DNA from: an uncultured Planctomycetota bacterium
GTDB taxonomy: Bacteria > Planctomycetota > Planctomycetia > Isosphaerales > Isosphaeraceae
Direction: 5' to 3'
Length of the DNA stretch: 64,000 nt
Assembly (NCBI GenBank): GCA_963845755.1
Contig: CAWJTV010000024.1
Span: 128,001 to 192,000 of the forward strand
Part shown: positions 2,503 through 31,324 of the stretch, in pieces
Layout of the letters: each line of letters opens with the position of its first letter
How positions within the stretch are numbered: position 1 is the first letter of the stretch
The notes under the pieces: model-generated
Seen by the model: the letters and a program-made list of their open reading frames with translations, nothing else
Told to the model about the DNA's origin: nothing
The model's database searches: none
Program-made: the position numbers and the translations under genes

Positions 2503-4150
2503 GAGCCTGTCCGAGAATTCGCCCGTGTCTCGCCTTGGCCCCTGGGTTCCCACCGGGCCTTGGCCATTTCGGCCTCGGCCGCGCCCTCGGCGCGCACTAT
2601 CCCACTCAACTCTCGGCGGCGGCGCAGGTGTGGCGCCAAATCTTCAGTAGATTGTGGGTCAGGCAGATCAGTTGCCACTCGGCGGAGACTTTCTCCAAGC
2701 CACGGAGCAGAAACTGGCGAATCCCCCGCGCGAATTTGATCTGGCCGAAGACCGGTTCGACGATCTGCTTCCGCGCCGCGTACAGGGCTTTGCCGGCCGC
2801 CGTACGCAGTTTGTGCTGCATCTTCTCGTTCACACTCGCTTCCGGTGCGGGAGCCGTCGTCGCCGACGTCACCGCAGCCACGTGGTGCTTCTGACGCTCA
2901 ACAGCCACATACGGGTCCATGCCGAGCTGCTCCAGTCCCGCCACCGCTTTCGCGCTGAAATAGCCCGTGTCCGCCGTGTTCGGAATCGGCGTCGGGGTCC
3001 CGTCGCTGGCCATCGGCCGCGGGATCCCAGCCGCCTCCAGATTGTTTAAGGCTGCTTGCGCCATCGGCACCGCCTGTTCCTTGTCGTTGGGCGCTGAGGT
3101 CACGTCCGGGGCGACGATGATCTGGTGCGCGCCATCCACCACCGCCTGGGCGTTGTACGAATAATCGAACCCCTTGTTGCTCTGCTTCATGATCTTCGCT
3201 TCGGGGTCGGTGAAGTTCATTTGCGCCTTCTCCTCGGGACTCGGATCGATCGGAGCCGGTGGCTTGCCCCGGCGTTTGCGGCCGTCCGCTTCCCGCTGGG
3301 CTTGGGCCTGATCCCGGCGGCGTTGTTCTTCGTCCGCCCGGGCAGCCGCCTCGGCTTCCAGCCGCGCTTTCGCCTCGCGAATCTTGGCCAACCGATCGTC
3401 ACGCCGCTTCAATTCCGCCGGCAGTTCGTCGCCGCGACGGCTCCCCAACGCCGCATCTTGCTCGGCGTCGAGCTGCTCAGCTTCCTGGAGCATTTGCTCG
3501 ATCTCGGCCTTCAGCCGTTCGATTTCCTTCCCCATGTAGCCGTAGCTCATCGCCTTGTGCCGCGAGGCGTTGGCCCCCATCTTGGTCCCGTCGGTGGACA
3601 GGTTCCCCAACTTGACCATCCCCAACTCGCCCGCGATGCGCAGCACCTCAAGGAACAGGGGCCGCAGTGCCGCCAGGTGGATCTTGCGAAAATCGCTGAT
3701 AGTGCGGAAGTCGGGCCGATCGATACCGACAATGGCTCGGAACGCCAGATTGCGCTCACAGGCGGCGGCGATCTTCCGGCTGGAGCGGACACCGATGCAG
3801 TAGGCATAGACCAGCAGCGTCACCATCATGGTCACGTCGAAGGGGGGTTGGCCGCGCAGTTCCTGGGCATAATGCTTGTGGAACGGAGTGAGGTCAAGCT
3901 GCGGGATGAGATCGATGAGGAAGAACACCAGATCGTCTTCGGGGAGCGCCTCCCGCGGCGAGATGGCGTCGTGACCATTCTGTCGAGGGTCCCAGGCTCG
4001 GTAGGTCTTGCGTCGGCCCTCCATGATTCGGCTCCCCGATCAGGCACCAAGGTAGAGGAAAGGTCGGAAACCCGCATTGTGCCCGAACCGACTCCGTCCG
4101 TACACCTGGCTCATCCGCGACAATGCGGGTCAGAGTTCTCAGACAGGCTC
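2503..4150 (-). mobile_element. IS1182-family insertion sequence with 18-bp terminal inverted repeats and CTAG target duplication
   Basis: Left IR GAGCCTGTCCGAGAATTC (2503-2520) versus reverse complement of right IR GAGCCTGTCTGAGAACTC (4133-4150), 16/18 match. CTAG at 2499-2502 and 4151-4154. Confidence 0.92.
2606..4024 (-). CDS. IS1182-family DDE transposase (472 aa, intact)
   Basis: LLVYAY..GVRSSRKI, PDFRTISDFR, DGTKMGANAS, TDPEAKIM, ADTGY and VEPVFGQIK motifs. Confidence 0.92.
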   Translation of the reverse strand: MEGRRKTYRAWDPRQNGHDAISPREALPEDDLVFFLIDLIPQLDLTPFHKHYAQELRGQPPFDVTMMVTLLVYAYCIGVRSSRKIAAACERNLAFRAIVGIDRPDFRTISDFRKIHLAALRPLFLEVLRIAGELGMVKLGNLSTDGTKMGANASRHKAMSYGYMGKEIERLKAEIEQMLQEAEQLDAEQDAALGSRRGDELPAELKRRDDRLAKIREAKARLEAEAAARADEEQRRRDQAQAQREADGRKRRGKPPAPIDPSPEEKAQMNFTDPEAKIMKQSNKGFDYSYNAQAVVDGAHQIIVAPDVTSAPNDKEQAVPMAQAALNNLEAAGIPRPMASDGTPTPIPNTADTGYFSAKAVAGLEQLGMDPYVAVERQKHHVAAVTSATTAPAPEASVNEKMQHKLRTAAGKALYAARKQIVEPVFGQIKFARGIRQFLLRGLEKVSAEWQLICLTHNLLKIWRHTCAAAES

Positions 4151-6452: not shown

Positions 6453-7080
6453 TTCGACACGATCGACCGCGGCCATTTACGAGAGTTCCTCAAGCGTCGG
6501 GTGCGCGATGGTGTGATCCTGCGACTGATCGGCAAATGGCTTAACGCCGGGGTGCTTGAGGAAGGGATCTTAACGATCCCTGACGACGGCACACCTCAAG
6601 GCGGAGTCGTTAGAGCGCTTACCTTTTGCATTGCACACGCCCTGAGGCGCTGCGAATTCACCCCCCCGAACCCCCCTTCGCAAGGGGGGGACAGGAAACG
6701 GGCTTTTCCCGATCAATATCCCCCCCTTGCGAAGGGGGGCGTTCGGGGGGGTTCTTCGGGAGCAGGCTTCACGTGTGGGCCGCCCAACTGTGAGGCGTCT
6801 AGCCCTCTCTTGGCCAACATCTTCCTGCACTACGTGCTGGACGAATGGTTCGAGAAGGACGTTCGCCCTCGCCTGAAAGGAGAAGCCTTCGTGATTCGTT
6901 ATGCGGACGATTTTGTGATCGGGGTGGCCCGAGAAGACGACGCCCAGCGCATCCGGGAGGTCTTACCCAAGCGGATGAGCAAGTACGGCCTGACGGTCCA
7001 CCCGGAGAATGGAGAAGCGATACCGTCTTCCCCGCGCCCGAGTGGTCCACGGCCTGCGGAGCGGCGTAGCGAAGTCATGA
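6453..7080 (+). pseudogene. ltrA: Group II intron reverse transcriptase/maturase fragment
   Basis: [27 protein letters not shown] and YGLTVHPE motifs, then a jump to the IEP-like C-terminus [13 protein letters not shown] in another frame. N-terminal RT subdomains and the X domain are missing. Confidence 0.85.
6614..6802. repeat. 189-bp palindromic REP/MITE-like insert flanked by duplicated TAG
   Basis: TAG at 6611-6613 and 6800-6802. Internal arms CCCCCCCGAACCCCCCTTCGCAAGGGGGGGA / TCCCCCCCTTGCGAAGGGGGGCGTTCGGGGGGG. Excision restores [14 protein letters not shown]. Confidence 0.8.
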
Positions 7081-7086
7081 GATGAA

Positions 7087-7174: not shown

Positions 7175-7787
7175 TCAGGGCAGGATGTCGTCAACGGCGA
7201 TCGGGCGGAGCCGATGGCCGCCGATCGTGACCAGGATCTGCTGGCCGGGGAGGTAGTCCTTGCGCGTCTGGTAAACGCCCTTGGCCGGACGCGTGTAGAC
7301 CTCGACCTGGCGGGCGACCAGGTTGATGATCCAGTAGACGGGGCTCCTCCCCTTGGCGTAGGTCGAGCATTTCTTGACCCGGTCCTGGCTCAATGTCGAT
7401 TCGGAGACCTCGACCACCAGTGCCACGTCGGTAGCGGTGGGGATCCGACGGCGGTAATCGGCGTCGGATCCCCGAACGATCGCGATGTCTGGCTCCGGCT
7501 CGTCATACCGGGGAATTCGCACCGGCTCTTCCTTCCGCGACGTCCACCCGGCCGGGAGCCGGCTGTCCAGCGCCTTGAGGGTTTCCTTCGTCGAATAGCT
7601 ATGTCCTGCATTCTTGCCCATCTTGTCCACCATGTAGCCGTCGATGAGTTCGACCCGACTGGGGTCTTCCAGTGCACCCGCCTCGATGATCCGCTCGTAC
7701 TCGTCGACGGTGATCCGGTGGAACGGCGGCGTTGCCAGTGGGGGCCGGGGATGAGGCCGTCGGTCGAGTCGCTGTGGCCGTGGACAT
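7175..7787 (-). CDS. Uma2-family (PD-(D/E)XK-like) endonuclease; likely 1-nt frameshift near 7740
   Basis: RITVDEY, VELIDG, EPEPD, LVVEVS, DR..K..YA, YWIINL motifs. ATG 7787 with GGAG RBS is one base out of frame. Confidence 0.85.
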
Positions 7788-8527: not shown

Positions 8528-8989
8528 TCACGCGGCCTCGCCGTCGGAGTCGCCGCGGTCGAAGGACGGTTCGGCGTTGCGTCCGCCGCGACGTTCTCGC
8601 GAGTCGTAGAGCACCATGGAGGCGACGATGGGCCGCAGCAGGTCGTTGACGACTTCGGAGCGGTCCTTGCCCAGGTGGATGGCGTAGAGCCAGAGCTTCT
8701 TGTCGAGGTCTTCCTCGATGGCGAACATCCGCTGGACGCGCTTGGGCTTGGCGGGCTTGACCCGCGAGGCCCGCGACCGTGACGAGGGCGCGGCGACGGC
8801 TCGGGGCGCGGCCTCGACCTCCGGCGGTGGGGCGGCATCGTTCGGCTCGGCGGGGCTCGCGGGCTCGGCGGCGGCGGCCGGCTGGGCGCCGAGCCGCCGC
8901 TCGAACTCGGCCTCGGTCATGCTCGGCCGGGTCAGACCGGTCCGGTTCTCGGGACCCGGGATCCCGCCACGTCGCATCGCACTGCTCAT
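8528..8989 (-). CDS. Small ParA partner with low-complexity N-terminus and C-terminal ribbon-helix-helix (ParG-like, 153 aa)
   Basis: Directly downstream of parA. Ala/Pro/Glu-rich tail, then KRVQRMFAIEEDLDKKLWLYAIHLGKDRSEVVNDLLR (strand-helix-G-x-x-x-S-helix pattern). Confidence 0.7.
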   Translation of the reverse strand: MSSAMRRGGIPGPENRTGLTRPSMTEAEFERRLGAQPAAAAEPASPAEPNDAAPPPEVEAAPRAVAAPSSRSRASRVKPAKPKRVQRMFAIEEDLDKKLWLYAIHLGKDRSEVVNDLLRPIVASMVLYDSRERRGGRNAEPSFDRGDSDGEAA

Positions 8990-8991
8990 CT

Positions 8992-9083
8992 CTTTGGTCC
9001 TTGAGTCATTAAGTCCTTGAGTCATTAAGCGAGGACCCGGGGACCCAAGGACGCGAGGACCCAAGGACCCAAGGACCAAGAGG
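8992..9083. repeat. Eleven in-register 8-bp repeats in two opposed arms between parA and the RHH gene
   Basis: ctttggtc cttgagtc attaagtc cttgagtc attaagcg | aggacccg gggaccca aggacgcg aggaccca aggaccca aggaccaa. Confidence 0.9.
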
Positions 9084-9887
9084 TCAGGATGCCTTCAACA
9101 TCGCGTCGGCCGGCTCGGCAGCGGCGAGATAGGCGCGGGCCGCCGCACGGTATCCGTCGGCACCGGCGCCATACGGGTCGTAATGGATCAGGGGCATCCC
9201 CCGCGCATAGGCCTCCCGGAACTTGACCGAGGCCGGGATCACGCGCTCGTAGACCCGCGGGCCGAAGTAGGCCCGGACCTCCGACTCGATCTGCTTGGAG
9301 ACCAGGGTCCGGTCGGCTCGCGTGATCAAGACCCCGGCGATCGTGAGCGGCCCGGCGTCGGTGAACTCCAGGCGGAATTCGCTGACGGTCCGGATCAGGT
9401 CCTCCAGCGCCCGGACGCCCGCCAGTGCCGCGACGCAGGGATCGATCGGGATCAAGATCTCGGCGACCGCATAGAGGATCGCCACGTTCAACGGCGTCAG
9501 GACCGGGCTGGTGTCGACGACCACGGCATCGTAGCCATCGAGCCCCTTGAGCAGCCGGCGGATGCGGAACTCGCGCCCCTGGCCCAGGCCCTGCGCTGCC
9601 CATCTGCTCCGAGCAGAGGCTCAGGCGGTCGCCGGGAGGCACCAGGTCCAGCCCGGGATACTCCGACGGTACCGCCACCTCGTCGAGCCGGAGCCCGTCC
9701 AGCAGCGCATCGGCCAGCCCCACGGCCGGCGCCCCCGCGCGAAGAACCCCAGCGCGGCATTCCCGGAGGGGTCGGCATCGATCAGCAGGACGCGACGGTC
9801 GAGCTCCACCATCGCCGCCGCGAAGTTGATCGCCGTCGTGCTCTTGCCCACGCCCCCTTTGGCATTGGTCACCGCGACGCTTCGCAC
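9084..9887 (-). CDS. parA: ParA/Soj-family Walker ATPase (about 267 aa; two compensating frameshifts near 9735 and 9585)
   Basis: GTG 9887 after a G-rich RBS. Motifs [43 protein letters not shown]. No N-terminal HTH. Confidence 0.9.
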
Positions 9888-9959
9888 GAGCACCCCCCTT
9901 CCCCACCTCGCGGCCCCACGAGGCCGCCGGTTCCAAACCGAGAATCCACCGTGTCTTAT

Positions 9960-11240
9960 CGGACCGATCATGGTCCCTTGTTGAGTCGATCCCTCGACGC
10001 CCAGGGACCTGGGTTCCCAGTCGCCTCGACACCCAGCCCGCTCGATCCCAGGATGCCCGGCAAACTTGCCGAGTCGGCACCAACATCTTGATGTTCCATG
10101 GTGCCTCGGTCCCTCGATCCCTGGATGCCCGGCTCGATGGGCATCGAGGCTTCTTGAGAGCTGGGAACCAGCAGGTCCAGTCTTCAGCATCACCTTGGTG
10201 CCACGGTCCCCAGAAACCAGGGAACCTTGTCTCATCCCGCGACGAGGTATCTTGGGACCACTGTCCCATCGTTATGAGAGGTTTCTGTGAACCCCGATTC
10301 ACTGGCATCCAGCGACCGAGGACTCCACGCCGGCAAGTTGTCGACGGGGACTCGGCACCTTCTCCTCATCGGCCACCTTGGTCCCTGTGCTTGATCGGTG
10401 GCTCGTCAACCCGTGATCAAGTCCGTCATCCCACCAACGTTCCGCATTCAGCATGGTCCCCAGTTCCGCGAGCTTCCCAGGTGCTCGGGACACCTCGATT
10501 GACGTCAGACGTTGGTGTTGACCTGCACCATGCACCAAGGTTCCATCGCGAACTCGAGACCTTGATGCCCTGGTAACCTGGATCCCCAGGGAATCGGGGT
10601 ACCTCTGGAAACTGGGAACCCCGTTGCTCGATATCGCTCGACCCGCTTGATTTCTGGACAGTCCAGGGGTCAACAAAGACGGGATCCTTGGTATCATCTC
10701 CGTCTATGCACCATGGGCCTCGAGGTCCCGCATGGGCCCGGGTACCTTGGTTTCAACCGGGCTTGATGCCGAGGCGGCTTTTGATCAAGATTTCAGGATG
10801 ACTATGGTGCATTGATCTTCAAGGCAACACGACGACCTTGGAACCATGCTTTCAATGGCCCCCATCGACCTCGACACCAGGGAACTGTTGGATCAAGGCC
10901 TCGAGTTTCCCGCTTCCCATGGCGTTACAGGCGGTCCAGGTGCCAACATCCCCGCAGGAACGAGCCGCCAACAGGGTCGATTGACCGTGAACTCTCGCGA
11001 TCCAGGTGCCTGTGCGCCCCGCTGGACCAAGGTCAATTGCGACCAGGGGAGCAACTTGCCTTGATGGCAGGGCCGCCGGGAATCCTTGATCCTTTAGGGA
11101 ACTGGGTCCCTTGAAGTCCGGGCGCAATCGAGAGGTTGCTCCTCAACCGGCCATGATTCCAGGTTGCTGCTTATCCCATGACGACCTGGCTCACTGGTAA
11201 ACTGGTGCGATAGACGCCTTGGAACCTTGGAGATCCAGGC
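9960..11240. repeat. About 1.3-kb degenerate 8-bp-periodic non-coding array (consensus roughly CCWWGGNN)
   Basis: In-register runs such as ccatggtg cctcggtc cctcgatc cctggatg (10096-10127), ccttggtg ccacggtc cccagaaa ccagggaa (10193-10224) and acgaggta tcttggga ccactgtc ccatcgtt (10242-10273), ending in ccttggaa ccttggag (11217-11232). No credible ORF. Confidence 0.7.
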
Positions 11241-11512: not shown

Positions 11513-11571
11513 AAAAAGGGGAAAAAAAATCGAGTGCGCTCTTGACATGAGTGATTCCTCGTATGCATGAT
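11513..11571 (+). promoter_or_regulatory. Sigma70-type promoter candidate for the giant surface protein gene
   Basis: A-tract upstream, TTGACA 11542-11547, 18-bp spacer, CATGAT 11566-11571. Confidence 0.45.
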
Positions 11572-11852
11572 GGCAAGGAATTGTGCAGTCATGCGATCTG
11601 CCCGATGGTTTCTAGGGATTGCGAAGACCAGGCAAACTCGACAGGAAATGGCGAAGTTTCCAGACGGACTGAAAACCGGCGGTCTCGGGACGAGAAATTT
11701 GACACCGCCACGTTGAGCCTGCATGTTTTGTCGATTCCTTGAACCTTACCTGGCCTCGGCGTTTAACGCAGGCCGCACAATCGGAATCCCCGCCGCAGGT
11801 GTTTCGCGGTGCTTTGATAGAGGCGACCAAGGCGAGAGTGGGAGGAACGGTC

Positions 11853-14800
11853 ATGGGTATGGGAGCGTGGGGCGGCCGGCTTCGAGGGCACCGAGGTCGG
11901 ATTCAGCCGAAGTCGCGGCTCAAGGAGGCCCGGAAGGCGCAGGCGCGATGGGGCGAGCTGGAGAGTCTGGAGCAGCGAACGCTCCTGGCCACAATCCCGG
12001 GGGCGACGGTCAGTCCGACCGCGTCCGGCCCCCAGAACATCTCGAACCTGTTCGGCAATGCCGGCGGCATGAACGCCAGCGAGAGCAGCGCGCTGGTGGC
12101 GGTGGATCCGGCCAATCCGACGAAGCTGGTGGCGGTCTGGATCGACAATGATCCGTCGGAGCTGCCCCTCACGAACAACTACATCCAGGTGGTGCTGGAG
12201 GGGGCGTATTCGGTCAACGGCGGCCAGAGCTGGCTCCCGTTCCTGGGCGAGCCGACCAACGGGTCTGGCATTCCCGTCGCCCCCTTGCTGTTCGACCCCA
12301 CGACCTCCGGGCCGACCCACCCCTACCAGTACCAGACGGATCCCAGCCTGGGATTCGACGACAGCGGTAACTTCTACATCCTCGACGAGTATCACAGTGC
12401 CGCCACGGCCGGCGCGTCGGGCAGCGGCGCAATCGCGCTCCAGAAGTTCACCTTCACCGGATCCACGCCTTCGGCAGACGCGTTCTCCGGTAACGATCAG
12501 ACTCCGAATCCTTACGGGTTTGGTGGCTTCGGGGGGGGGACCGCCGACCTGAAGGTCCTCTACCAGTGGGACTCGACATCCGATGACCTGGCGATCGAGC
12601 CGACGATGACGGTGGATGACAATGTGGCGACCGCTCCCACCGGCGTGACGACGCAGCCGGATGCGTTCAGCGGCGACGTCTACGTCGCGTGGACGAGCGT
12701 CAACCACAACACGGCGATTCCGATCGTGGATTTCAACCCCAACCGGATCAAGCTGGAGGTCTCCTCGGACGGCGGGAACAATTTCAGCCCGCTGACGATC
12801 ACGGGGAACGGGAACTTCCTGGACGACTTCCTCGTGCCGAATGAGAAGGATTCGACCCCGGCGATCACGGTCGCCCAGGGGCGGCTGCCCAACGAGAGCG
12901 GCCAGTCCGGCGATGCGGGGATCCCCGGCGGCCAGGTCGCGATCACCTTCGACGACTTCGGCAACAACCAGATCGTGGCCAACACGGTGTCTGCCGGCCG
13001 CGATTACTCGTACGGCGGCGAATCCGGGCTCATCCCGTTCGGGACCTACCTCACGGGAGGCACCGCGTTCGGGCTGCAGACGCCGGTCTCGATCCCCAAC
13101 ACCACCGACCTGAATAGTCTCGAGGTCACGGTCAACATCGTCAACTCCAGCGATGCGGACCTGGGGCTCTACCTGGAAGCTCCCAGCGGCGACCTGTTCG
13201 AGCTGGTCGACAACCAGACCATCGACACCAGTCCCACGGCGAGCACGAGCATCACCAGCGAGGGATTCAGCGGCGGCAACGTCGGGGTCGTCACTTACAC
13301 CAACAACAACATCGCCAGTTACGCGATGGGGACGACGTTCGCCGACACCGCGACGCGCGACATCTTCGACCCCACCACCAGCGGCACGAACGGGAATACC
13401 GCGCCGTACATCGGCCAGTACGCGCCGGAGTTTGGCGGGACCCAGCCGCCGGGCGTGAGGGCCACCTCGGGGTCGCTCGACGGGTTCCTCCAGCAGGAAT
13501 TGGCCAAGGGCATCAACGGCACGTGGAAACTGGTGACCTTCGACTCCAACACCAGCGCACCGTCCAGCCCGAATTTCATCATCAACTGGTCGCTGACCTT
13601 CGGCCGGGGGCTGTCGCCGGACGTCCGCACCCTCGTTCCCGCCACTAAAGGGCTGGTGGTCGCCGGCTCGGTCACGGCCTCGGGCACGGTCACGGAGCCG
13701 TCCTCGCCGGTCGCCATCGGCCCCGGCGTGGTCATGACCGAGGACAACACGCTGGGCCAGAACAGCCCCTTCGAGGGGCGGATCTACGTCGCGTTCGTCG
13801 GCTATTACAACGTCAAGATCGACGGCTTCCAGAACCCCGCGAGCAACACCGACATCTTCCTGAGCTATTCCGATGACGATGGCCGGAGCTGGAGCGAGCC
13901 GGTCCAGGTCAACGACGACAATGGGCAGTCCGACGGCAACTCCGGGTCGAGCGAGATCAATCCCTTCGACCAGGTGAGCGGCCACAGCCAGTACGATCCG
14001 CAGCTCGCCGTGGACCCGACGACCGGGACGCTGGTGATCTCCTGGCGCGACGCCCGCAACGATCCCGCGAACGTCCTGACGTCAACCTACATCACCGCCA
14101 GTATCGACGGTGGCAACACGTTCAACGCCCAGGTCTACGCCAACCCGCAGTTAACCGCGATCGACGCCATCACCGGCAAGACCGACGTCCTGGGGCCGGA
14201 GGGCGACAACGCAACGGCGACGGACAACAGCGTGAATGCCACCTACGGCTTCGGCACCGTGATGGGGCTGGCCGTCTACGCCGGCCAGGTCTATCCGCTC
14301 TGGGCCGGCAACTTCGACGAGGCCACGATCGTCAATAGTGCCGCGGCCGGCAATGCCCTGTCGGCCATGTTCCAGCCGATGGTCATCGCCGCCGGCCCGC
14401 GGATCGTCAACAGCACCATGGGGCCGATCCCGCTGTCGGAGGCCAAGAGCGGCCAGGTCAGCTTCACCGTCACGTTCGACCGGCCGATCAATCCGCCGGG
14501 CATCGCCGCATCCTTCACCACGTCCGACATCCAGGTCTTCTACCACGATACCACCAACGGCGACGCCTCCATCCCGCTCGATGTGCTCAGCATCTCGCCG
14601 GTGATCTCCAGCGGCGTCGGGCCGGGGAACAAGTTCGGCTACACCGAGTTCACGGTCGTCTTCGACCCCGCCAAGGTGACCGGCGGCGGCGCCAGCGGCA
14701 TCGCGAATTACACGGGCACCTACAGCTACATGATCACGCCCGACGACGAAGCGGGCGACCCGATCGTGTCGGCGATCCCCTCGTTCGTCATCACCGACGT

Positions 14801-17800
14801 CACCCAGCAGCCCGTCGGCCCCGACTCGTCGGGAACCGTGGATCTGCGGCTCCCCAGCTCGGGCACGGGCGGGTCGAACACCTCCGACGATATCACGACC
14901 TCGACGATCAACGTCGCGGGCTTCGCCAACCAGATCATCACGGGGGTCACGGTCAACCTGACGCTGACGCATCAGAACGACAGCGACCTGGAGATCACCC
15001 TGACGGCGCCCGACGGCCAGGCGAACACCTTCTACACGGGCACGTTCAACGGCCCGGTGACGTTCAACAACCAGGCGTTCAACGTCAACGGCCTGGCGGG
15101 CAGTCGGGTCGGCGGCACCTACACGCTGACCATCGACGATACGGCGTCCAACAACACCGGCACGCTGGATAGCTGGACGGTCACCATCGACTCGACGCTG
15201 CCGACCTACGGGTTGGTGGCCGGCGCCCCGATGGACCAGAACGCCGACGGCACGGCCGACCAGAACCCGCTCACGATCCCGTTCACCGGGCTGACCCCGG
15301 GCGACGTCTACGCGGCGCCCGCCCCGGCCCCGACCAAGAAGGTCACCTTCTCGAACGCCGCGAGCATCCTCAACCCGCCGTTCAACCAGAACACCCTGCC
15401 GCTGAGCGTCCCCGGTCCGCAGATCCTGTCCACCACCGTCGTCGGCACTTCGGGGCAGACCACCAGCGGCGCGTACGGCAGCGCCAACCTGGTGACCGAC
15501 GATACGACCAGCAAGATGCAGGTGACCTTCGACCGGCCGATGCTGGTCAACGCCGCCGGCGCCGGCCAGACGCCCACTCCCGGCTCGTTCAACCCCGGCC
15601 AGGTCCTGTCGATCATGGGCCCGTTGGGCTCGATCCTGGCGCCGCAGAGCTTCGCCTCCAGCTCGGCGGACCAGCAGGTCAACGCCGCGACCTCGCCCAC
15701 CGCCCCCGGCACCCTCAACTCGTCGCTGACGATCAATTCCGGCGGGACCCTCCAGATCGCCGACATCACCGTGGACCTGAGCATCGCGACCACCGCGGAT
15801 TCCGCGCTCACGGCGGTCCTGGTCGCGCCGAACGGGACGACGATCCCGCTGTTCTCGGGCGTGGGCGGCGGCGCCGGCCAGAACTTCATCAACACCGTCT
15901 TCGACGACTCGGCGCCGACGGCCATCAATACGGGGACGGCCCCGTTCACGGGGAGCTACACGCCCGAGTACACCCTCAACTCGGCCACGCTCACCAGCCT
16001 GAAAGGCATGGTCGCCGACGGCACCTGGCAGCTCAAGCTCACCAACACCAACACCGGGGTCACCGCCACGCTCGACACCTGGTCGTTGAACATCACGCCG
16101 CAGGTCACGGTCGCGCCGGTGGCCGCGACCGAGAGCACGATCAACGGGAAGAAGTACGCCACCGAGTTCACCATCGCCTTCCCGCAGCAGCAGCTCAGCG
16201 GTACCTACACCATCCAGCTCGGCCCGAACATCCAGGACCAGTACGGCGACCAGATGGACGTCAATCAGGACGCGGGCCTCGACGTGCTCCGCGGCCAGAG
16301 CCAGAATGGCCCGACGGCCACGGTCTCGTACGTCGCCTCCGATCTGCCCAAGACGGTCTCCAAGGCGTCGACCAGCTCATCGGGCACGGCCGTCGACGGG
16401 CAGGTCGCATCGAGCATCGTCGTGCCCGACAGCTTCGTCATCCAGGGGGATGCGACCTCGTCCCAGATCAGCGGGATGCAGCTCCAGCTCAACATCTCCT
16501 TCGCGAACGATCCCTCCCTCACGGCCACGCTCTACCATTACGACGCCCAGGGCGACCTGATCGGCCAGGCGACGCTGTTCAACGGCGTGGGGACCGGCAC
16601 CAATACGGCGGGTTTCGCCAATACCATCTTCGACGACAACGCGCCCACGCCGATCCAGGAAGGTAGCGCACCGTTCGCCTTCAGCTACAACCCCCAGCAG
16701 TCGCTGGCCACGGCCTTCGCCGGCATGAACGCCCAGGGGACCTGGACGCTGGTCGTTCAGAACGCGTCGAATTCGGTCACGGGCACGGTCAATAACTGGT
16801 CGCTGAGCTTCCAGAAGCCGCTGCCGACCAGCGGGCTGGGCGAGCCGGGCAGCGACGACGCCAGCCTCGGCTTCCGCATCTTCACCCTGAGCCCGACCAG
16901 CGCCCTGTCGAGCCAGGCCTGGACGGCGGTCGGCGGCGCCTCCAGCACCGTCGAGGCCGGCCAGGTGAACGCCATTGCGGTGGACCCGTCCGACCCGTCC
17001 GGAAACACCGTCTACGTCGGCGGTGCCTCCGGCGGCATCTGGAAGACCACCGACTTCCTCACCACCAACCCCGCCGGGCCGACCTGGATCCCCTGACCAA
17101 CTTCGGTCCCAACGCCGCCATCAACATCGCCAGCATCACCGTCTTCCCCAGGAACGCCGACCCCAATCAGTCGATCATCATCGCCGCCACCGGCGGCAAT
17201 ACCAGCGGCCAGTACGCCTCGGACGCGCCCGGCGTCGGCTTCCTGATCTCCTCCGACGGGGGTGCCACCTGGAAGCTGGACGACAGCACGAACAACGTCG
17301 ACTCCAGCGGCAACCCGCTGCCCATCAACTCCACCAGTCGCGATCGCAAGTTCGTCGGCACCACGGCGTACCAGGTCACCGTCGACCCCCAGCTCACCCC
17401 CAACGGCGGCGTGATCATCTATGCCGCCTTGAGCGGGACCAACGGCGGCATCTGGCGGAGCGAGGACACGGGCCAGACCTGGACGCAGGTGCTGACCGGC
17501 AACGCGACCGCCGTCGTCCTGGACCAGGACAGCGGCCTCGCCCTCGACACGCTCACCCAGACCGAGGTCGAGGGGAACCTCCAGATCGTCTACGCCGGGA
17601 TCGAGGGCCAGGGCGTCTTCATCAGCACCAACCAGGGCCAGAGCTGGACCCTGATGGCCGGCGGCGTTGGCAATCCGCTGATCATCAACCTTTACAACGG
17701 GAAGAACGTCAACCCGGCCACCAACCCGACCCCCAACGGTGCCAACGGCCGGATCGTCCTGGCCGTCCCGTCGTTGACCGGCAATACCGCGGAGGACGAG

Positions 17801-20800
17801 ACCTACGCGGGCTGGCTCTACGCGGGGGTCGCCACCGCCGGCGGCGGATTTGACGGCCTGTTCGTCACCAAGGACTTCGGCGAGAACTGGACCCAGATCG
17901 AGATCCCCAGCTTCGCTCCGATCACCAACGGCGGCGTGTACAACCAGGCCGTCCCGACCCAGCTCGGCGACGTGAACGCCCCTCCGGGCGGCACGCCCAA
18001 TTACGCGATCACCGACGATGGCGAAGGCAACCTGGACTTCAGCCTGACCATCGATCCGACCGATCCCAGCGTCACCTACCTGGGAGGCTTCGGCGGCGAC
18101 GGGTACAACAGCGACAGTGGGCTGATCCGCATCGACTCCACCAATCTCCAGGATGCCCACTCGCTGGTATCGCCCCTCGACCAGACTCCGGGCCACGGCG
18201 TGGACATCGGCACGACCGGGGCGACCACGTTCAATACCGTCCTGAATCAGCCGTTGATCTTCCCCCCGCCGAACTTCAACTTCGACTCCAACCCCTACCT
18301 GAACCTGATCCGCAACCCGAACGAGCCGTTCCTGAACGATGCGACCATCGAGGTCAACAATTACAACACCTTCACCAACACCGGCGGCGGCGCCACCTGG
18401 ACGCCGTTCGACGTCCCCATAACCTCCGTGTTCGTCGCGCCGGGGTCGAATAACGAAATCTCCGGGACGGGCTACCAGATCGCCATCTCCGAGGTCAACC
18501 CGACGACCGGGCTGCCACGACTGCTCTTCGGCAGCAATACCGGGATCTACAGCGTCCTGGACAACAAGGGGACGTTCGAGACCACCATCGGCAGCTCGGA
18601 TGCGACGCCCGCGGTCAATCGCAACGGCAACCTCCAGCTCGCCCAGTTCTATTACGGCGCGGCCGAGCCGAGCAGCGCGGCCGCCCAGGCCGCCGGCGCC
18701 CTCTTCTACGCCGGCGCCCAGAACATCGGCGGCCAGGCTTCGGACGCGCTCGAGGTGGGCGACGGCAATATCCAGTGGAGCACCATCGGCCTGGGCGTTC
18801 CCGGTTACAGCGCGGACGCCGCTTTGGACCCGCTGGGCGGCACCTTCTGGATCGCCTCCGGCACCGCGGTCGACGAGCAAGGGAGCGGCGACGCCTTCCA
18901 GTACTATTCGCCCGGCCAGGGGGGCGACTCTACCGATTTCGTCATGGTCAACGGCATCAGCCGGACCTTCGGGCTGCTCCAGGCCAGCAATGGCCTGCCC
19001 GCCCCCGATCCGCAGTGGACGATCACCGGCGATGAGAGTGCCCCCACGAGCTGGGCGAACCTCATCGTCAACCCGGTCAACGACCAGGACATGCTCGTCA
19101 GCTCGAGCACCGGCAACGTCTTCGAAACGACGAACCAGGGCAATACCTGGTTCCCCCTCGGCACCCCGGCAACCTTCGGGCTGCCGACGACGGCGACCGG
19201 CGCCCACTTCAATACCAGTTTCGCCCTGGCCTATGGCGCCCCCGACCCCCAGGCTCCGGAGGGCGTCGGCAACCTCGGCAACTTCATCTACGTCGGCACC
19301 TCGCCGAACAGCGCGGGCACCGCGGGCCAGATCTACGTCACGCAGAATGCCGGCGGCAACTGGACGAACATCTCCACGGGCCTCGACGGTTCCCGCATCC
19401 AGGAAATCATCACCGACCCCGCCCGGGGCAGCCACGACGCCTACGCCGTCACCGCCCAGGGCGTCTATTACCTGGCCAACTCGATCACCTCGGCCACCAA
19501 TCCCACTCCGACCTGGGTCAACATCACCGGCAACCTCAAGACCCTGGCCTACACCATCTTCGGCCAGAGCTACAATCCGGCGACCGACACGAACGCCACG
19601 ACATATGACCTGGCGACGGTCCTCAACTCGATCGCGGCCAACTGGAATTACGCCATCCCCAATAATCCGCAGGCGCTCAGCCAGGGATACCATCCGGTCC
19701 TCTACGTCGCCGCCAACTCGGGCGTCTACATGTCCATCGACAACGGGACGACCTGGAGCCTCTACCCCAGCACGACCTTCGGCGCGGTGGCCAATGGCGG
19801 TTATCTGCCGGACGTCAGCGTCACCGACCTGAGCCTCTCGCAGGGCAACGTCGCCGTGGCCACGGGGATGCCCAACCTGGGCGGCCCCTACAACCCGGAG
19901 GATCCTAGTTCCACGGCCGACCCCGACCTCTTGATGGCCTCCACTTACGGCCAGGGTGCCTTCGCCATCAACCTGGCCCCGATGCTGTTCAACACCCCCA
20001 CCAACCCGGTGCAGGTCAACTCGAGCGATACGGGGGGGACCACCGCCAACGGCACCACGATCGTCAACACCTCCTCGCCCATCATCGACGGCTCCAGCGA
20101 GACCTCCGGATTCGGCAACGCCACCTGGGTCTCGATCGTGGACGAGACGCCGGGCGACACGACCAAGGGCCAGATCATCGGCGGGTTCAACCCCCAGACG
20201 ACCGTGCTCGGCAAGGCGAACTCGGCCAATGCGACCAACTCGACCGACTCCTTCGGCAACTTCAAGATCCCGGTCTCGACCGCGTTCAACTCGAACGGCC
20301 TGAAGACGGTCGAGGTCTACACCACCGACGATGCGGGGGCCGAGAGCACCAAGGTCACCCTCACCTTCATGGTCCAGGCGACCAACATCATCCCGCCTCC
20401 GCCGACGACGCCTCCGCCGTCGCCCACGCTGGCGCTCTCGCCGTCCTTGTCCCTGGTCGGCGGGGTCCCGATCACCAGCAACACGTCCCCGACGTTGACC
20501 GGCACGACCATCCTCGGGACGTTCGTCACGATCACCGAGACCTACGAGAACGGCACCACCAACCCCACCATGACGTTCGTCGTGCCGTCCTCGGATATCA
20601 ACACCGACGGCTCGTTCAGCTTCACCTTCGAGGATTTCACGGACACGAACGGTAACCCGCTCGAGAACGGGAACTTCGAGGTCTCCGCCACGGCGACGTA
20701 TTCGGTCGATCCCCATCATGTCGGCGCATCCGCCCCGAGCAACACCTTCACCGGCACGCTGACCAGCGGATCGGCGAGCGTCACCGGCGTCAGCAGCACG

Positions 20801-23062
20801 GCGGGCCTGGCCCCCGGGGATGTGGTCACCGGGACCGGCATCCCGTCCGGGACCACGATCCTGTCCGTCAACAGCCTGACCTCCACCGTCACGCTCTCGG
20901 CCAATGCCACGACCACCGGCTCGGAGAATCTCCTGGCCGCGGTCTTCTTCGAGATCGACAACACGAAGCCGACTCCGGTGACCAACCTCCACCTGAACCC
21001 GGCCGACGATACCGGGATCGTGGGGGACAACGTCACCACCGACCGGACGCCCCAATTCATCGGGACGGCCCCGGCCGGCGACATCATCGAGCTGTTCGTC
21101 TCCAACCAGGCCGGCATCCAGAACACCGCGGTCGCCTCCGCCTCGACCACGAATAACTTCGCGATCGCGTTGCCTCACAGCCTGAGCGAGGGCCAGACCA
21201 CGGTGTACGTCGAAGTGGTCGATCCGGCCGGGAACGTCTCCCAGGCCAGCAATGACCTGACCGTGGCGATCACCTCGACCCCGGTCGACTACATCGCCTC
21301 CACGACCGCCGATCCCACGGGTGGCAGCACGTCCGACCCGGCGCTGTTCACCCGCAACACGACGACCGGCCAGCTCCAGTGGCTGGTGCAGACCCCGACG
21401 GGGGCAACCCCGCCCTGGTTCGGCGCCAGCGGCACCCTCACCTCCGCGGGACCCGGCACGGTCCAGGTCGTCCCGTTCTACGGCGACTTCGACGCCGATG
21501 GGCTGACCGACCTGGCCTATTACAACACCAGTACCGCGACCTGGACGATCGACGAGTCGTCGAGGTACCAGCCCTTCACGTTCACCGGCACCCTGACGAG
21601 CGGATCGGCGACGGTGACCGGCATCAGCAGTACAACGGGCCTGACGATCGGCCAGGACCTCGCCGGCACCGGCATCCCGGCCGGGACCACGATCCTGAGC
21701 GTCAACCCCCTGACCAACACCATCACGCTCTCGGCGAGCGCGACGGCCAGCGGCTCCAATAACCTCACCGCCACCGAGCCCCCCGTCTCGTTCACGATAG
21801 GCACCCCGAATTCGAGCGTCCCCGTGGTGGGCAACTTCGACACCAACGGCCCGACCGAGACCGCCGTGTTCACGATCAACGGCCAGGGTCAAGGCGTCTG
21901 GACCATCAACAGCGCCCTCACGGGCACCTACACTGTGGCCTTCGGCCAGGCCGGCGACATCCCCGTGCCCGGCGACTACGACGCGATCGGTCACGACGAG
22001 GTCGCGGTCTATCGGCCCAGTACCGGCCAGTTCCTGGTGCTCAACCCCGTCACCAACACCACCGAGACCCTCAGTATTCCCGGGATCAGCACCGGAGTGT
22101 CCGGCTCTTCGTCGTCGCCGGACCTCAGCAGCCTCGTTCCCGTCCCCGGCCAGTACGACAATCTGGCCTATTACAACGCATCGGCCCTGCAGGGCCAGCA
22201 TGTGCCGATCTTCGGGCACACCGAAGCGGCCGTGTTCGACCCCAAGACCGGGGTGTTCACCATCCTCGGGCCCGCCGGCGACCACAGCACCAGTGGCGTG
22301 TACACGGTCTCCGGGTTCCAGACCGGCGTCATCCCGGCCGTGGCCGACTACCTGGGCACCGGCGAGGACCAGGTGGTCGCCTACCAGCCGAGAACGGGTC
22401 AATTCATCGAGGGAACCGTCGGCTCCAATGGACAGACGACGCTGACGACCCTCGCCACGCTGGGTCAGTCGGGCGACATCCCCGTGATCGCCCCGCTCTC
22501 CTATCGGCTGCCCGCCAATGGCATCGGCGGCTCGTCGGGCACCGGCTCGTCGGGCACCGGCTCCAGCGGCGGTGGCTCGACCAGCGGCGGCGGCTCGACC
22601 AGCGGCGGTGGCTCGACCAGCGGCGGTGGCTCGACCAGCGGCGGCGGCTCGACCAGCGGCGGCGGCTCGACCAGCGGCGGTGGCTCGACCAGCGGCGGCG
22701 GCTCGACCAGCGGCGGCGGCTCGACCAGCGGCGGCGGCTCGACGTCATCGGGGCAGAGCACGCCCACACCCGCTGCCGCGCCCACTCCCGTGTCTGCCTC
22801 GAAGCACCACAAGAAGGTGGTGACGAAGAAGGCACACCCGAAGCATCCGGTCAAGCCCAAGAAGGTCGTGAAGCCCCATGCGAAGAAGGAGGCGCACCCT
22901 GTCAAGAAGGTGCACGTGGCTCCGACCGTGAAGCACAAGGCCGTCAAGCCTGCGGCCGTGACCGACGGCCAGGCGTCGCAACGGGCCCATGTGGTGGATC
23001 TGGCCCTGCAGGACGTCCACGTGAATCTACGCCGGTCGCACTCGAAGCATCACGGCGAGTGA
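11853..23062 (+). CDS. Giant secreted surface protein (about 3,736 aa; -1 frameshift near 17092): LEPRxLL signal, Asp-box propellers, four proprotein-convertase P-domains, Ig-like domains, FG-GAP-like repeats, GS linker, K/H-rich tail
   Basis: ATG 11853 with GGAGG. LESLEQRTLLA signal. Asp boxes SSDGGNNF, SDDDGRSW, SIDGGNTF, SEDTGQTW. P-domain ends GTW.L...W.L.F. GDFDADGLTDLA / GDYDAIGHDEVA repeats. Adding one C at TGGATCCCCTG (WIPLTNF) joins ORFs 11739-17096 and 17411-23062. Confidence 0.85.
22565..22744 (+). repeat. 18-bp tandem repeat x10 (AGCGGCGGYGGCTCGACC) encoding a (SGGGST)10 linker
   Basis: Directly visible in the sequence. Confidence 0.95.
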
Positions 23063-23335: not shown

Positions 23336-23792
23336 GGCCGCCGGTCAATCACCAGGCAAGCTGTCGCATTCGTTCGACGACGTTCCGGCAGACGTGCGCG
23401 GCGCCCGCTGCCCCGAAGGCCGTCCCCCAAGTCAAGTTCGACGAAGCTCGGTAGAACCCGGGCAGTGAAGCGAAGCTGAACTCCTACGGGATCCCGATTC
23501 GGAGACCCGATCGACGAGGAACGACTTCCTCCGTGAAGATGCGGCGGTTCTTCCTCCTTCCCATCGAGCTTCGCAAGAAGCGACGTCGATCGGCGATGCT
23601 TCCAGGAAATCTCTGATTTTGCGCGCCCCGTTCGCCGGTCAAACGGCGCCTTCATGGGGTAGGGGACACTGCAATCTGACGAAGATTGTCCCGCGTGTGA
23701 GCGTACAGAATTCCGACCGGTGTCTTGGTAGGGGTCTGGACCAGGTTCTTTCTCATTACCGGCACACTCAAGCTGGACCGAATGGAACGACC

Positions 23793-26700
23793 ATGAACGG
23801 CATTCTTTCATCTCGGGATCGTCGGTTGTCGGAGGTTCCGTGTGACGCCCAGGGATCGCGGCGGAGACGAGCAGTCGGGCGTCGGCGTCAGCGCCTGGAC
23901 TTCGATCCGCTGGAATGCCGGCGGCTGTTGAGCATCTCCAATCCGGTCGCCCAGTTCCCGCTCCGAGGGTCCGGAGGCACGCCGGAGGCGGGCGCGTATG
24001 ACGGCAATGGGAACCTCTGGGTCCTGCTTTCGAACCAGAACATCGCGGAGGTTGGCGGGAGCGGTGCCCAGTACCATATCCCGACGTACGGCTCGCTCGG
24101 CGGTGCTCCGACCGGCAGCGAGCTGGGCCTGATCACCTACGACGCGGTCGACGGCAACCTCTGGTTCTACGAGACCAACAGCAACCAGTTCGGCAGCCTC
24201 AATCCGACGAGCGGCGCGATCAATGAGTACCCCGCGTTGGCCTTCGCGACGGACCCGTTGATCAAGCAGATCACGGCCGGTCCCGACGGGAACATCTGGT
24301 TCACCGAGCCGAACCTGAACCAGATCGGGATGTTCGACGTGACCACGGGCCAGATCAGCCAGTTCACGATGCCGGTGCCGGACACGCAGCCGCAGGGGAT
24401 CGTGGTGGGCGCGGACGGGAACCTCTATTTCACCGAAGGCGGCCTGAACAAGCTGGGCAGTCTGAACCCGTTTACCCACGTGCTCAACAACATTCCCTAC
24501 GAACTGCCCACCTACACCACCAATGACCAGGCCGAGGGGATCGCGACCGGGCCGAACAACACCATCTGGTTCGTGGAGACCGAGAACAACTCGGTCGTCG
24601 AATTCGACATTAAAACGCAGGCGTTCACGAAGCTGCATTACCCCGTTGCCCCCTTCGTCTACCCGACCCCTAACCCGCTCCCTAATCCTCCGGGACCCTC
24701 CGCCGGCCTCTTCTCGATCGCGGAGGGTCCGGATGGGAATATGTACTATACCGAACCATCCTATGGCTCGGAGATCGGAGTCTACGATCCGTCGAGCGGC
24801 GCCGCGAACTATATCGTGCCTGCGCCGATGCAGCCGGCGCCCAATCTGACGGGAGCCCTGATCGTGCCGGGCACCACGGGCACGACGGTTAATATCATCG
24901 ACCCCGCGAGTGGAGCGATCTCCAACTTCGGCACCCCCGTCAACATCGGCGCGACCCCGCCGCTCATGGTCCTCTTCACCGCCACGAGCGGCGCGACTGC
25001 CGCCGACGATGCGAATGATGTCATCAGCTTAGGGGGCGAAATTTACTATACCGACGACAACGATATCAACGGCGAGATCGGGGCGTTCGACCCGGCGACG
25101 CAGATCAACACCATGTTCCCTCTCCCGCCATATCCGACGACCCCACCGCCGCAGCAGGATCCCGGCCAGATGGCGGTGGACGACAACGGCAACATCTGGG
25201 TCACCGAGACGACCGTGAATGCGATCCAGGAGTTCAACCCCACGACCGGCTACGGCGGCACGATCGCCTTGACCACGCTCAGCAGCAACCCCACCGGGCT
25301 GAGCTGGGACAGCATCGAACAGCTCTTCTGGATCACCGAGCCCGGCGCCAACCAGATCGTCAGCTTCGACCCCAAGACCACCGGCAGCGCCGTCGCCCCG
25401 GTCCTGACCCCGAACCAGACGATCCAGGACCCGATCGACATCCTGGTCGATCCCTCGACCGGCTACCTGTGGATCAGCGAGGGATCGGCCGACAAGATCA
25501 TCGAGTACAGCCCGGAAAATGAACAGATTCTTTATTCTTACACCACCAAGGGCAGTCCCAATCAAATGGTGTGGGGCCCCGACGGCAACATCTGGTTCGG
25601 CGAATCGGGCGGCTACGTGGGGGTGTTGAAGCCCGGGACGGGGATCGTCACGGAGATCCCGGTGAGCGGGACGGCGAACTATCTGGCGGTCGCCCCCAGC
25701 ACCGACTCGAGTGGCCAGGCGATCTGGTTCACCGAGTCGGGCAGCAACCAGATCGGCGAGATCGACGTCAACTCCCAGTCGCTGGTGGGTTATGTGACGG
25801 CCCCGGATACCAACGCCCTCGCGATAGCGCTGGGCCCCGACGGCAACCTCTGGTTCAGCAGCGGGCAGGGCAATCCGGGCATGATGGGTGCCGTGGTGCT
25901 CAATCCCAACGACCTGGCCGGTAAGGTGGTCATCACGTCGCAGCCGCCGAACGTCGAGGAGACGATCTTCGGCGGGTTGACCTGGGGCTTCGGTACGACC
26001 GTGTCCATCGAGAGCGTGGGGGGCCAGACCCCCGACCCGTTCATCCAGGAGGGGACGATCACGATCGCGCTGGATAGCAATCCCGGCAATGACACGCTGG
26101 AGCCCTCCCCGGGCGAGTCGCTGACCGAGTCGGTGGTGGACGGTCAGGCGATCTTCGGCGGCATGACGATGGCGATTCCGGCGCAGGGGTATACGATCCA
26201 GGCGACGTACAGCCTGGGGTTGAACGCGCCGGTGACCCATCCGTTCGATGTGGCGGGCCAGCCGACGAAATTGATCGTGACCGAGCAGCCGACGCAACCT
26301 TCGCAACCGACGCCGCCCCCGATCGAGGTCCAGGCCGGCGTGACCTTTACCTTGACCGTCACCGCCGTGGACGCGCTGGGTTCGGTCGTGCCCAGCTTCG
26401 ACGACCCGGTGCTCCTGTCGATTGACAACAACCCTTCCCCCGGCAACGGCGTCCTGAACGGCACGAGTCCCGTGGGCGCCATCTTTGGAGTGGCGTTGTT
26501 CGACGACCTGACGATCGATCAGGCGGGTAACGGTTACACGCTCCAGGCGACCGACGACCAGGCCCAGGCGGCCACGGTCTTGCAGAACCCGGCGGCACCC
26601 GCGGTGACGTCTCCGTTCGACGTGGTCCCGGGCCCGGCGACGCAGTTGGTGTACGCGGCCACCGGCGAGCCGGTGGCGACGGCGACCGCGGGCCAGGATT

Positions 26701-29700: not shown

Positions 29701-31275
29701 GTGGCGACGTTCCCGGGTCTGTCGCTGGACGTGGCGGCGTCGGGCTACACGATCGCGGCGACGACGTCGGGATTGAATCCGGGTGGGACGACACCGATCG
29801 ACGTGGTGGCGGGGACGGCGACGCAATTGGTGTTGACGGTGGCGGCGCCGACGGTGATGACGGCGGGAGCGGACTTCGGCCTGGCGATCTCGGCGGAGGA
29901 CGGCTACGGGAACGTGTTGACGGGATTCACGGGGACGATCACGCTGTCGCTGTCGAACAACCCGGGGGATGCGACGCTCCGCGGGGGCGCGCTGTCGAAG
30001 CCGGCGGTGGGCGGGGTGGTGAATTTCGGCCCGGCGTTGACGCTGGACGAGGCGTCGTCGGGTTATACGTTGCAGGCGACCAGCGGCGTCCTGACGAGCG
30101 TGACGACGGGCGGGATCACGGTGGTGCCGGGAGTGGCGACGCACCTGGTGGTGGAGGCGGAGCCGCCGTCGTCGGTGACGTCGGGTCAGGGATTCGGGCT
30201 GGTGGTGGCGGCGACGGACCCGTTCGGCAACGTGAATCCGAACTACGCGGGAACGGTGGTGGTGACGGCGCCGTCGGGTACGGGTGCGAGCGTGGGGGGC
30301 AAGACGACGGTGACGACCGTCGGTGGCGTGGCGAGGTTCGCGGGCCTGACGCTGAGCGGGGCGAGCGAGCCGGTGTCGTTGCAGGTCACCAGCACGGGCG
30401 TGGCGGGGACGACGACGACGGCGGTGGGCCTGGCGGGAGCATCGCAGTTGGCGTTCGCCAGCGGCGGAGTGAGCGTGGATGAGACGTCGGGTACGGCGAC
30501 GTTGCAGGTGTTGCGGACCGGCGACCTGTCGGAGCCGGTGACGGTGGAGGTGTTGACGTCCGGGGGTACGGCGGTGGCGGGAGTGAATTACACGTCGGTG
30601 AACCAGGAGTTGACGTTCGCGGCGGGCCAGGCGTCGCAGACGATCGCGGTGCCGGTGAAGGACGCGGGAGTGCTGTCGCAGCCGTTGACGGTGAACGTGG
30701 TGTTGAGCAGCCCTGGGGGGAGCGGAGCGTCGCTGGGGAGTCCGTCATCATCGACGCTGACGATCCTCAACGCCGGGCAGACATCGACGCCGACATCGAC
30801 GCCGCTGGTAACGCTGGAGGGCGTGGAGATCGTCAAGAAGAAGGGGAAGGTGAAGGAGGTCGTGCTGGGGTTCAGCGGAGGCCTGAACGGATCCGAGGTG
30901 ACGAGCATCGGCGAGTACGAGCTGCTGGTGGCGGGGAAGCATGGGTCGTTCACGGCGAAGAACGCGAAGGTCCTGAAGCTGAAGTCGGCGGTGTACAACG
31001 GAACGACCCATACGGTGTCGCTGACGCCGAAGAAGGGATTCGTGCTGAAAAAGCCTGTGGAACTGATCGTCAATGGCGAGGGGCCGTCGGGTCTGGAGGA
31101 CAGTTCGGGTCGGCTGATCGACGGCAACGACGACGGTCAGGCGGGGGGCAACGCGGTGGCGGTCCTGACGCGTCAGGGAGCGAGGATCAGTGCCTTGACC
31201 GCGCGGATGGCGGCGGTGGATGCGATCCTCGCACAGGGTGAGCGGGTGGCCGTCACCAAAGTTCAGCGAATCTGA
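23793..31275 (+). CDS. Secreted surface protein copy 1 (about 2,493 aa; +1 frameshift near 27259): LEPRxLL signal, Vgb/NHL-like propellers, tandem about 100-aa Ig-like repeats, Calx-beta-like domain
   Basis: FDPLECRRLLS signal, repeated GPDGNIWFTE, repeated QLV.T.EPP...GVATF..L....G.YTL units, and GGTAVAGVNY. Copy 2 lacks the extra T (ATGTCAACC versus ATGTTCAACC). Confidence 0.87.
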
Positions 31276-31324
31276 TCGCGATAATTCCCTTCCTCTTCGT
31301 AGGGGAAGGTGGCCCTTGGAAAGA

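Follow-up and report, generated by a model that had tools for sequence, protein, structure and literature searches.

Which DNA site and which protein partner serve a short ParA ATPase is the question raised by a locus in a 64,000-nucleotide stretch of an uncultured Isosphaeraceae genome (the window; positions 128,001 to 192,000 of GenBank contig CAWJTV010000024.1, here C24, of assembly GCA_963845755.1). An initial annotation, made from the letters of the window, had proposed a type Ib-like segregation system in which a parA without a helix-turn-helix (HTH), a small downstream gene and a very long upstream centromere act together. We found that the locus is shared family-wide and is probably the partition region of an Isosphaeraceae plasmid of the pPALBO1 type, representing a type Ib-like variant with a candidate centromere 5-10 times the length of parH-OF of plasmid TP228 and a conserved two-zone geometry.

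A periodic array upstream of parA

The candidate centromere and operator is a periodic non-coding array at positions 9967..11240 (no strand assigned), made of 154 units of a C-NN-G box and a 4-5 bp spacer, with a mean period of 8.35 bp. Autocorrelation of 9960-11240, compared with 500 dinucleotide shuffles, showed peaks separated by troughs, at lags 8 (z = 7.3), 17 (5.7), 25 (4.8), 33-34 (5.1 at 34), 42 (4.2) and 58-59, and the periodogram peaked at 8.35 bp (power 12.9, median 0.64). The region ranked first for the 8-bp signal among 56,985 scanning windows of the 14.3-Mb genome. These results bear out the periodicity claimed by the initial annotation, and the count comes close to its estimate of up to about 160 units; the plain 8-bp period that it gave is replaced by a mixture of 8- and 9-bp steps. 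A second 8-bp-like signal in the genome, on contig C33 (L001:6340-8250 in G000), was rejected as another array, being a coding repeat of ~1.9 kb in 27-bp units that encodes an Asn/Pro/Gln-rich tract.

The borders of the array were set with a box matrix trained on other genomes, the window left out, which delimited it at 9967-11240 with 277 bits (263 bits on the opposite strand); the next best site on C24 reached 17 bits, and 1.6 Mb of other contigs gave at most 19.5 bits. No second array was found on C24, where no further lattice site exceeded background, including upstream of repA, the replication initiator gene; upstream of repA in two plasmids we saw weak periodogram peaks (3.1-3.3). The array had no codon periodicity (period-3 power 0.4 vs 28 in the neighbouring gene), no 10.5-bp bending period and no Rfam match, its folding was not unusual (z -1.5), and its GC content was lower than that of its flanks. 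Tandem Repeats Finder reported within it no more than 2.9 copies of a single 8-mer; programs of this kind miss such arrays, and further ones have probably gone unnoticed. That the assembly did not create the array is shown by two public sequencing runs, whose short-read contigs contain four pieces of it with 0-1 differences.

A cyclic model parsed the window array into 157 units, 116 of 8 bp and 34 of 9 bp, scoring 170, where five shuffles scored -8 to 10. The conserved core is C-NN-G, seen in 59% of the 4591 boxes of 41 family loci, the commonest being CAAG (543) and CTTG (516), then CGAG, CATG, CTGG and CCAG. The consensus CCTTGGNN given by the initial annotation proved weaker than stated, CCAAGG and CCTTGG together making up 289 of the 4591 boxes. 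The box matrix is nearly self-complementary and two-fold symmetric, and both orientations are equally frequent, which suits a symmetric dimer. Because 149 of the 154 window units are distinct, the lattice appears to be maintained by selection and not to be a slippage repeat.

The array is kept throughout the family

The small gene downstream of parA was present in 50 genomes, 43 of which were examined and yielded 44 loci. We excluded L076, where the contig ends before parA, and L078, a paralog that was counted apart; the array of L068 is cut by a contig end. The relatives are kin and not independent samples. All 42 family loci that include parA had an array with a period of 8.0-8.46 upstream of that gene, and the 41 complete arrays were 884-1741 bp long, held 106-210 units and ended 61-191 nt before parA. 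Homologs with a flanking periodic array had been named by the initial annotation as a check on its type Ib-like system with a very long candidate centromere, and this result supports both. In a self-trained model, the arrays of 41 loci scored 32-236, whereas parA coding DNA reached -9 to 14 and shuffled sequence -12 to 9; the matrix used for locus scoring was trained on the same relatives, and only the window score is out of sample. Array position and box type are the same across many genera, and the near-invariant box type stands alongside a near-invariant predicted DNA-binding domain in the small protein. The gene beyond the array encodes a giant secreted-type protein here and in two plasmids and is another gene in pPL62-1, showing that the array is not tied to that neighbour.

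Within the array we observed two zones, new here, with ~25 strict 8-bp units beside parA followed by a long 8/9-bp zone. In the window, the parA-proximal zone (9967..10190, no strand assigned) has ~27 strict 8-bp units, is the only part alignable between genera and is likely the operator; the distal zone (10191..11240, no strand assigned) proceeds in mixed 8/9-bp steps, in which the 9-bp steps avoid each other, and its sequence is unconserved between genera. Counted from the parA end, steps >8 bp made up 2% and 5% of the first two groups of ten units and reached 28-33% in units 50-110, and the median strict 8-bp run was 25 units (41 loci). Adjacent pairs of long steps in the distal zone numbered 209 against 343.5 expected, while a simulation with independent steps gave 444 such pairs vs 455 expected. 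Alignable pairs of loci amounted to 116 of 820 for the proximal zone vs 10 and 19 of 820 for two distal segments. Array identity in 11 diverged pairs was 59-70%, below that of parA four-fold sites in 7 of the 11, a comparison in which two exceptions involve frameshifted parA genes and the sites are inflated by GC bias; the best-kept position was the C or G of the box in 10 of these 11 pairs. The sequence of the array thus turns over while its lattice persists.

A conserved non-periodic motif closes the proximal end of the array (9934..9962, minus strand), with CCGATA and a TTTG-like word ~18 nt on. CCGAT(A/C) stood 69-80 nt before parA in 25 of 43 loci, and the CCGAT end motif also closes the arrays of two paralogous plasmids. 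We take CCGATA to be a likely promoter element, although a sigma-70 scan found no promoter for parA. One genus (L064, L067, L068, L072 and L073) has an array of almost strict 8.0 bp throughout, and its adaptors carry V85I, K97R and an altered N-tail, which makes it a natural test of the spacing determinant.

ParA and the putative adaptor

The window parA (9084..9887, minus strand) encodes a short ParA with the deviant Walker A motif KGGVGKS at residues 10-16 and an AAA_31/CbiA match from residue 1. The Walker A region thus stands at the start of the protein and no N-terminal HTH precedes it, in agreement with the initial annotation and as expected of a type Ib ATPase. The protein is 75% identical to pPALBO1 ParA, and its orthologs have 233-317 amino acids (aa).

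The small gene (8528..8989, minus strand), whose open reading frame the initial annotation had picked out, is real and conserved; it follows parA in 42 of 42 family loci, the place of a type Ib adaptor gene, and is annotated as "hypothetical" on three closed plasmids. Its product is a putative centromere-binding protein of 153 aa with 1189 homologs, in which an Arg-rich N-terminal block (residues 6-32) is invariant, including R6, R7, R16 and R21, a predicted ribbon-helix-helix (RHH) domain (residues 84-131) is near-invariant, and the linker is variable and modelled with low confidence. Searched with the window protein, 49 of 120 other family genomes gave a match, and 327 genomes of the class outside the family gave only one weak match (E 0.008). 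Small-protein matches in G094, G095 and G122 were rejected, being weak and either without a lattice match or prophage-like. The adaptor had no match to the ParG Pfam family, and a search for the ParG family across 301 genomes of the phylum turned up 3 weak matches, all of them outside the own genome.

The RHH fold that the initial annotation assigned to this protein is indirectly supported, by a profile bridge and by the Atlas search described below. A paralogous Isosphaeraceae adaptor family matched the adaptor profile with a profile-profile probability of 92% (E 6e-7; with trimmed alignments, 2e-4 vs 0.05 for a reversed control), and 24 of 44 members of the paralog family match Pfam RHH_5 and 23 of 44 a FitA-like RHH, with E up to 0.1. 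The paralog profile also matches MatP (E 0.0017), whose C-domain we take to be an RHH. Fold searches returned RHH-titled chains (2rbf, 7ycv) and several antitoxins in a consistent register.

A probable pPALBO1-type plasmid carries the locus

Three closed homologous replicons, pPL62-1, pPALBO1 and pOJF2_1, are plasmids; each carries the array and has the order parA, small gene, convergent repA. On C24 a RepA ortholog (74% identical) of the RPA initiator family is encoded at C24:119905-121401, and this is the sole RPA match of the own genome. Of 58 pPALBO1 genes queried from the 84 features of the record, 53 mapped, and C24 was the best match for 28 of them, while nine mapped best to C15; C24 therefore combines the RPA initiator with the shared backbone genes of a pPALBO1-type plasmid (rep_cluster_171). 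The contig (221 kb) ends in repeated elements without terminal overlap. No tRNA was found on it, and no match to ParB_N (PF02195) in this incomplete assembly; carrier contigs in 5 of 5 near-complete relatives and both plasmid contigs of relative G001 likewise lacked a ParB_N match, so the ParB_N gene linked to parA that marks a type Ia or ParABS system was not seen. Together, these data support the plasmid location put forward by the initial annotation. Five relatives assembled in 1-5 contigs lack the small gene and also a ParA ortholog (best ParA 28-38%); the replicon is therefore not universal, which supports a plasmid better than an essential chromid. Cumulative GC skew of C24 tracked giant genes and yielded no origin. 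On C24, repA stands 15 kb from the small gene and the array has stayed beside parA, keeping company with parA and the small gene and not with repA.

Paralogous lattices

Related ParA systems occur on pOJF2_2 (L110:23100-23642 and 1-1081), on pEP7_03 (L111:40270-40894 and 1-1090) and in G061, with a third set of coordinates at L103:5100-7310; their ParA is 36-40% identical, and the small protein is related but different. Like the pPALBO1-type family they have a parA, a small RHH-like gene and an upstream 8-bp lattice (547-741 bp), an L-x-R-P-(S/T) motif in the N-tail and, in two plasmids, the CCGAT end motif; they differ from it in a nearly strict period of 8.0 (two plasmids), in box geometry and in having no long 8/9 zone. 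They are undescribed relatives and not characterised systems. Cross-scores between the paralogs and the pPALBO1-type family were 9-54 bits vs 208-292 for self (shuffled self 14-40). pOJF2_2 and pEP7_03 partly cross-score each other (64 and 112), and the co-resident pOJF2_1 and pOJF2_2 do not (15 and 18). Given these low cross-scores and the absence of a lattice near repA, the lattice tracks the ParA-adaptor lineage and not RepA. pEP7_03 also carries an annotated terminase gene and is phage-plasmid-like.

Comparison with known systems

The closest parallel is TP228 ParF-ParG-parH/OF, in which 20 tetramer boxes with 4-bp spacers form a proximal operator and a distal centromere (PMC3130281). Shared features are a short Walker ATPase, a small adaptor gene downstream, whose product in TP228 has a flexible N-tail and an RHH C-domain and is here predicted to be of this build, and, ahead of the operon, degenerate tetramer boxes that occur in either orientation and are separated by 4-bp spacers; direct and inverted repeats in that position are a type Ib trait that our locus has. 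It differs in having 106-210 boxes in one run instead of 20, a symmetric C-NN-G box instead of ACTC, spacers that are not AT-rich and are strictly 4 bp and then mixed 4/5 bp, and an adaptor of 153 aa without a ParG Pfam match. The statement of the initial annotation that the centromere is ten times longer than classical ones is correct if parH (12 boxes) is taken by itself; with OF included (20 boxes) the factor is 5-10.

The ParA-ParB-parS system of pCXC100 has nine 9-bp repeats (PMC3074162). As here, its adaptor is not recognisable as RHH from sequence, and its uninterrupted degenerate repeats lie upstream of parA, where they are bound cooperatively (PMC3074162); its nine repeats are non-palindromic and span ~90 bp, compared with >100 palindromic 8/9-bp units in our arrays. 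In the delta-omega-parS system of pSM19035, treated together with the definition of type Ib in PMC5016525, RHH dimers wrap around iterons in direct and inverted orientation, the DNA staying straight, and serve as repressor and centromere binder. Its sites, of 9, 7 and 10 iterons and each present twice, are dispersed, unlike the one continuous kilobase array found here. Characterised type Ib centromeres thus have ~9-20 sites per locus, as against a continuous 106-210.

We found no description of the adaptor or the array in the full-text literature, a coverage that leaves subscription journals largely outside. A study of plasmid synteny proposed that ParA of pPALBO1 and ParB of pPALBO2 cooperate (PMC5352709), and a survey counted ParA in 19 plasmids and ParB in 12 (bioRxiv 10.1101/2024.01.22.576637). 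The words "ribbon" and "parS" do not occur in the accessible text of the survey; tandem repeats near rpa are tabulated there (Table S5), and that list might extend to these arrays. For the "orphan" ParA of pPALBO1-type plasmids, which are large and common to many soil planctomycete bacteria, our results supply a candidate adaptor with its cis site, and with them an alternative to the published idea of a ParB from a second plasmid (PMC5352709). They also define parts for stable planctomycete vectors, a need stated in bioRxiv 10.1101/2024.01.22.576637.

A type Ib model and its alternatives

Gene order, replicon type, array geometry and family-wide conservation are the observed parts of our explanation; binding, repression and segregation we infer from TP228, pCXC100 and pSM19035. 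By this analogy we consider it probable that the locus is a type Ib system in which dimers of the adaptor cover the boxes cooperatively and contact ParA through their tails, with the proximal zone serving as operator as well. One adaptor dimer would bind per C-NN-G box, as with TP228 ParG on parH; each box would be weak, and binding strength would be gained cooperatively, by contacts between dimers on neighbouring boxes 8-9 bp apart. The coated array would form an extended nucleoprotein tract of up to ~0.4 micrometres that combines the roles of centromere and operator; its strict 8-bp proximal zone would also repress the par promoter. The Arg-containing N-terminal tails could then stimulate the ATPase of nucleoid-bound ParA and so move the plasmid. 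A bolder version, which we regard as tentative and rather doubtful, makes the array a sequence-encoded regional centromere: 100-200 weak boxes would replace the spreading of cytidine triphosphate (CTP) clamps, with the 8-bp zone as nucleator and operator and the 8/9 zone load-bearing, giving a CTP-independent RHH complex of ParABS scale whose whole kilobase is needed to segregate a large low-copy replicon in budding planctomycetes. The retention of the array across genera makes it testable whether partition-complex size is selected and whether sequence-encoded coating replaces ParB spreading.

Several observations weigh against the type Ib model. TP228 needs only ~8 boxes (PMC3130281), and >100 are retained here. 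A long-range helical phase lock (5 units = 42 bp = 4 turns) was tried and rejected, since unit-order shuffles did equally well and 3 of 42 loci reached p < 0.05; the comparison of paralogous lattices rests on three loci. For the adaptor fold, neither Pfam nor PDB gave a direct sequence match to the small protein, the paralog family matches Pfam weakly (best E 4.5e-4), fold-search Z values were at most 5.1 and tied with non-RHH chains, and the ten best family-bearing Atlas hits, which fall in one clan with RHH families, scored 0.86-0.88, under 0.9, and are a lead only, from one source. Both AlphaFold monomer models (predicted template modelling scores of 0.30 and 0.48, with shallow or no alignment) place a helix where the RHH strand is expected, and the predicted strand Q86-R87-M88-F89-A90-I91 is, in our reading, atypically apolar for base readout. 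Finally, the window parA carries two frameshifts in this assembly, which the initial annotation had not mentioned, being short by one base near 9731 and by two near 9600 relative to an 87%-identical ortholog. These are likely assembly errors, because a related short-read contig contains the base missing near 9731, 14 of 53 test genes in the assembly also match in several frames, and 39 of 41 relatives have an open parA frame of at least 233 aa; no read set of the same strain spanned both positions.

Other explanations of the array fared worse. That only the proximal 200-250 bp are centromere and operator, the distal kilobase being a titration sink or a buffer of Par levels, seems unlikely to us. 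The proximal zone alone keeps a strict period and can be aligned between genera, TP228 does with eight boxes (PMC3130281) and the paralogous plasmids manage with 547-741 bp, but the distal lattice has a spacing rule of its own and is retained in 41 of 41 complete loci, never below 884 bp, despite its turnover. We give little credence to a replication origin, in which the array would be the iteron field of the RPA-family initiator. Iterons are near-identical repeats, and 149 of 154 units of the array differ; repeats of the iteron kind adjoining the rep gene were not seen. The par genes separate the array from repA, which here is 15 kb off with no lattice match in the 16 kb around it, even though repA adjoins the par genes in the three closed plasmids and falls within the fetched stretch in 26 of 41 relatives. 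Two plasmids without an annotated RPA gene carry comparable lattices upstream of parA. The GC content of the array, lower than that of its flanks, would suit an origin.

It is also very improbable that ParA uses a CTP-binding ParB in trans, the lattice being read by a host nucleoid protein or acting as a structural DNA element. ParB_N genes do lie on other replicons of these genomes, cooperation of this kind was proposed for P. borealis (PMC5352709), and the RHH fold of the adaptor lacks a direct model; against this, the small gene follows parA in all 42 loci and neither plasmid contig of G001 has a ParB_N match. A reader shared by the host would not be expected to see different lattices in paralogous systems of one cell, and the lattice occurs once in the own genome, with no 10.5-bp bending period. 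Least credible is a decayed neutral minisatellite, cryptic gene or structured RNA. Intergenic short tandem elements are frequent in these genomes, yet the array has no internal repeat above 2.9 copies, no period-3 signal, no Rfam match and a folding z of only -1.5, it keeps the same position and box type across many genera, and a lattice conserved without sequence conservation largely refutes the idea.

The intergenic block and neighbouring genes

The initial annotation had included in the system a block of 8-bp repeats lying between parA and the small gene. The block exists (8990..9083, no strand assigned): the 94-bp spacer is an inverted arrangement of 8-mer arms, forming a hairpin-armed repeat. 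It fits the box consensus and could bind the adaptor, yet as a strain-specific member of a dispersed repeat it is probably not a conserved part of the par system. With 17 bits it lies within the background range, the spacer of the window was the only one above 10 bits among 43 loci (five without a usable spacer), and similar inverted-arm elements occur on five other contigs (C20, C5, C28, C29 and C1). Dispersed intergenic elements with inverted tandem 7- or 8-mer arms are REP-like, the 8-mer version resembling the centromere box, and some relatives (L039, L058, L061) have unrelated 7-mer-armed elements in this spacer.

The window part of the gap between repA and the par genes holds a DUF772/DDE transposase, a reverse-transcriptase fragment, a Uma2 endonuclease gene and others (window 2606-4024, 6501-7085 and 7175-7750); from the reading frames, the transposase interrupts a gene for a probable tail-specific-type peptidase. 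One relative, G071, has two copies of the par locus in its genome (L047 and L069, on C9 and C18), with arrays 98% identical. Beyond the array, the giant gene at window 11739-23059, an ortholog of a 3300-aa pPALBO1 protein that is split here by a frameshift, encodes a secreted-type protein with proprotein convertase P-domain, Ig-like and sortilin-like regions; a sigma-70-like promoter (11542-11571) and a repeat of ten 18-bp copies (22563-22743) were also noted. Two tandem paralogous giant genes with Vgb-lyase-like propellers and Calx-beta follow at window 23469-39078 and are 94% identical over 6.3 kb (25007-31258 and 32803-39064).

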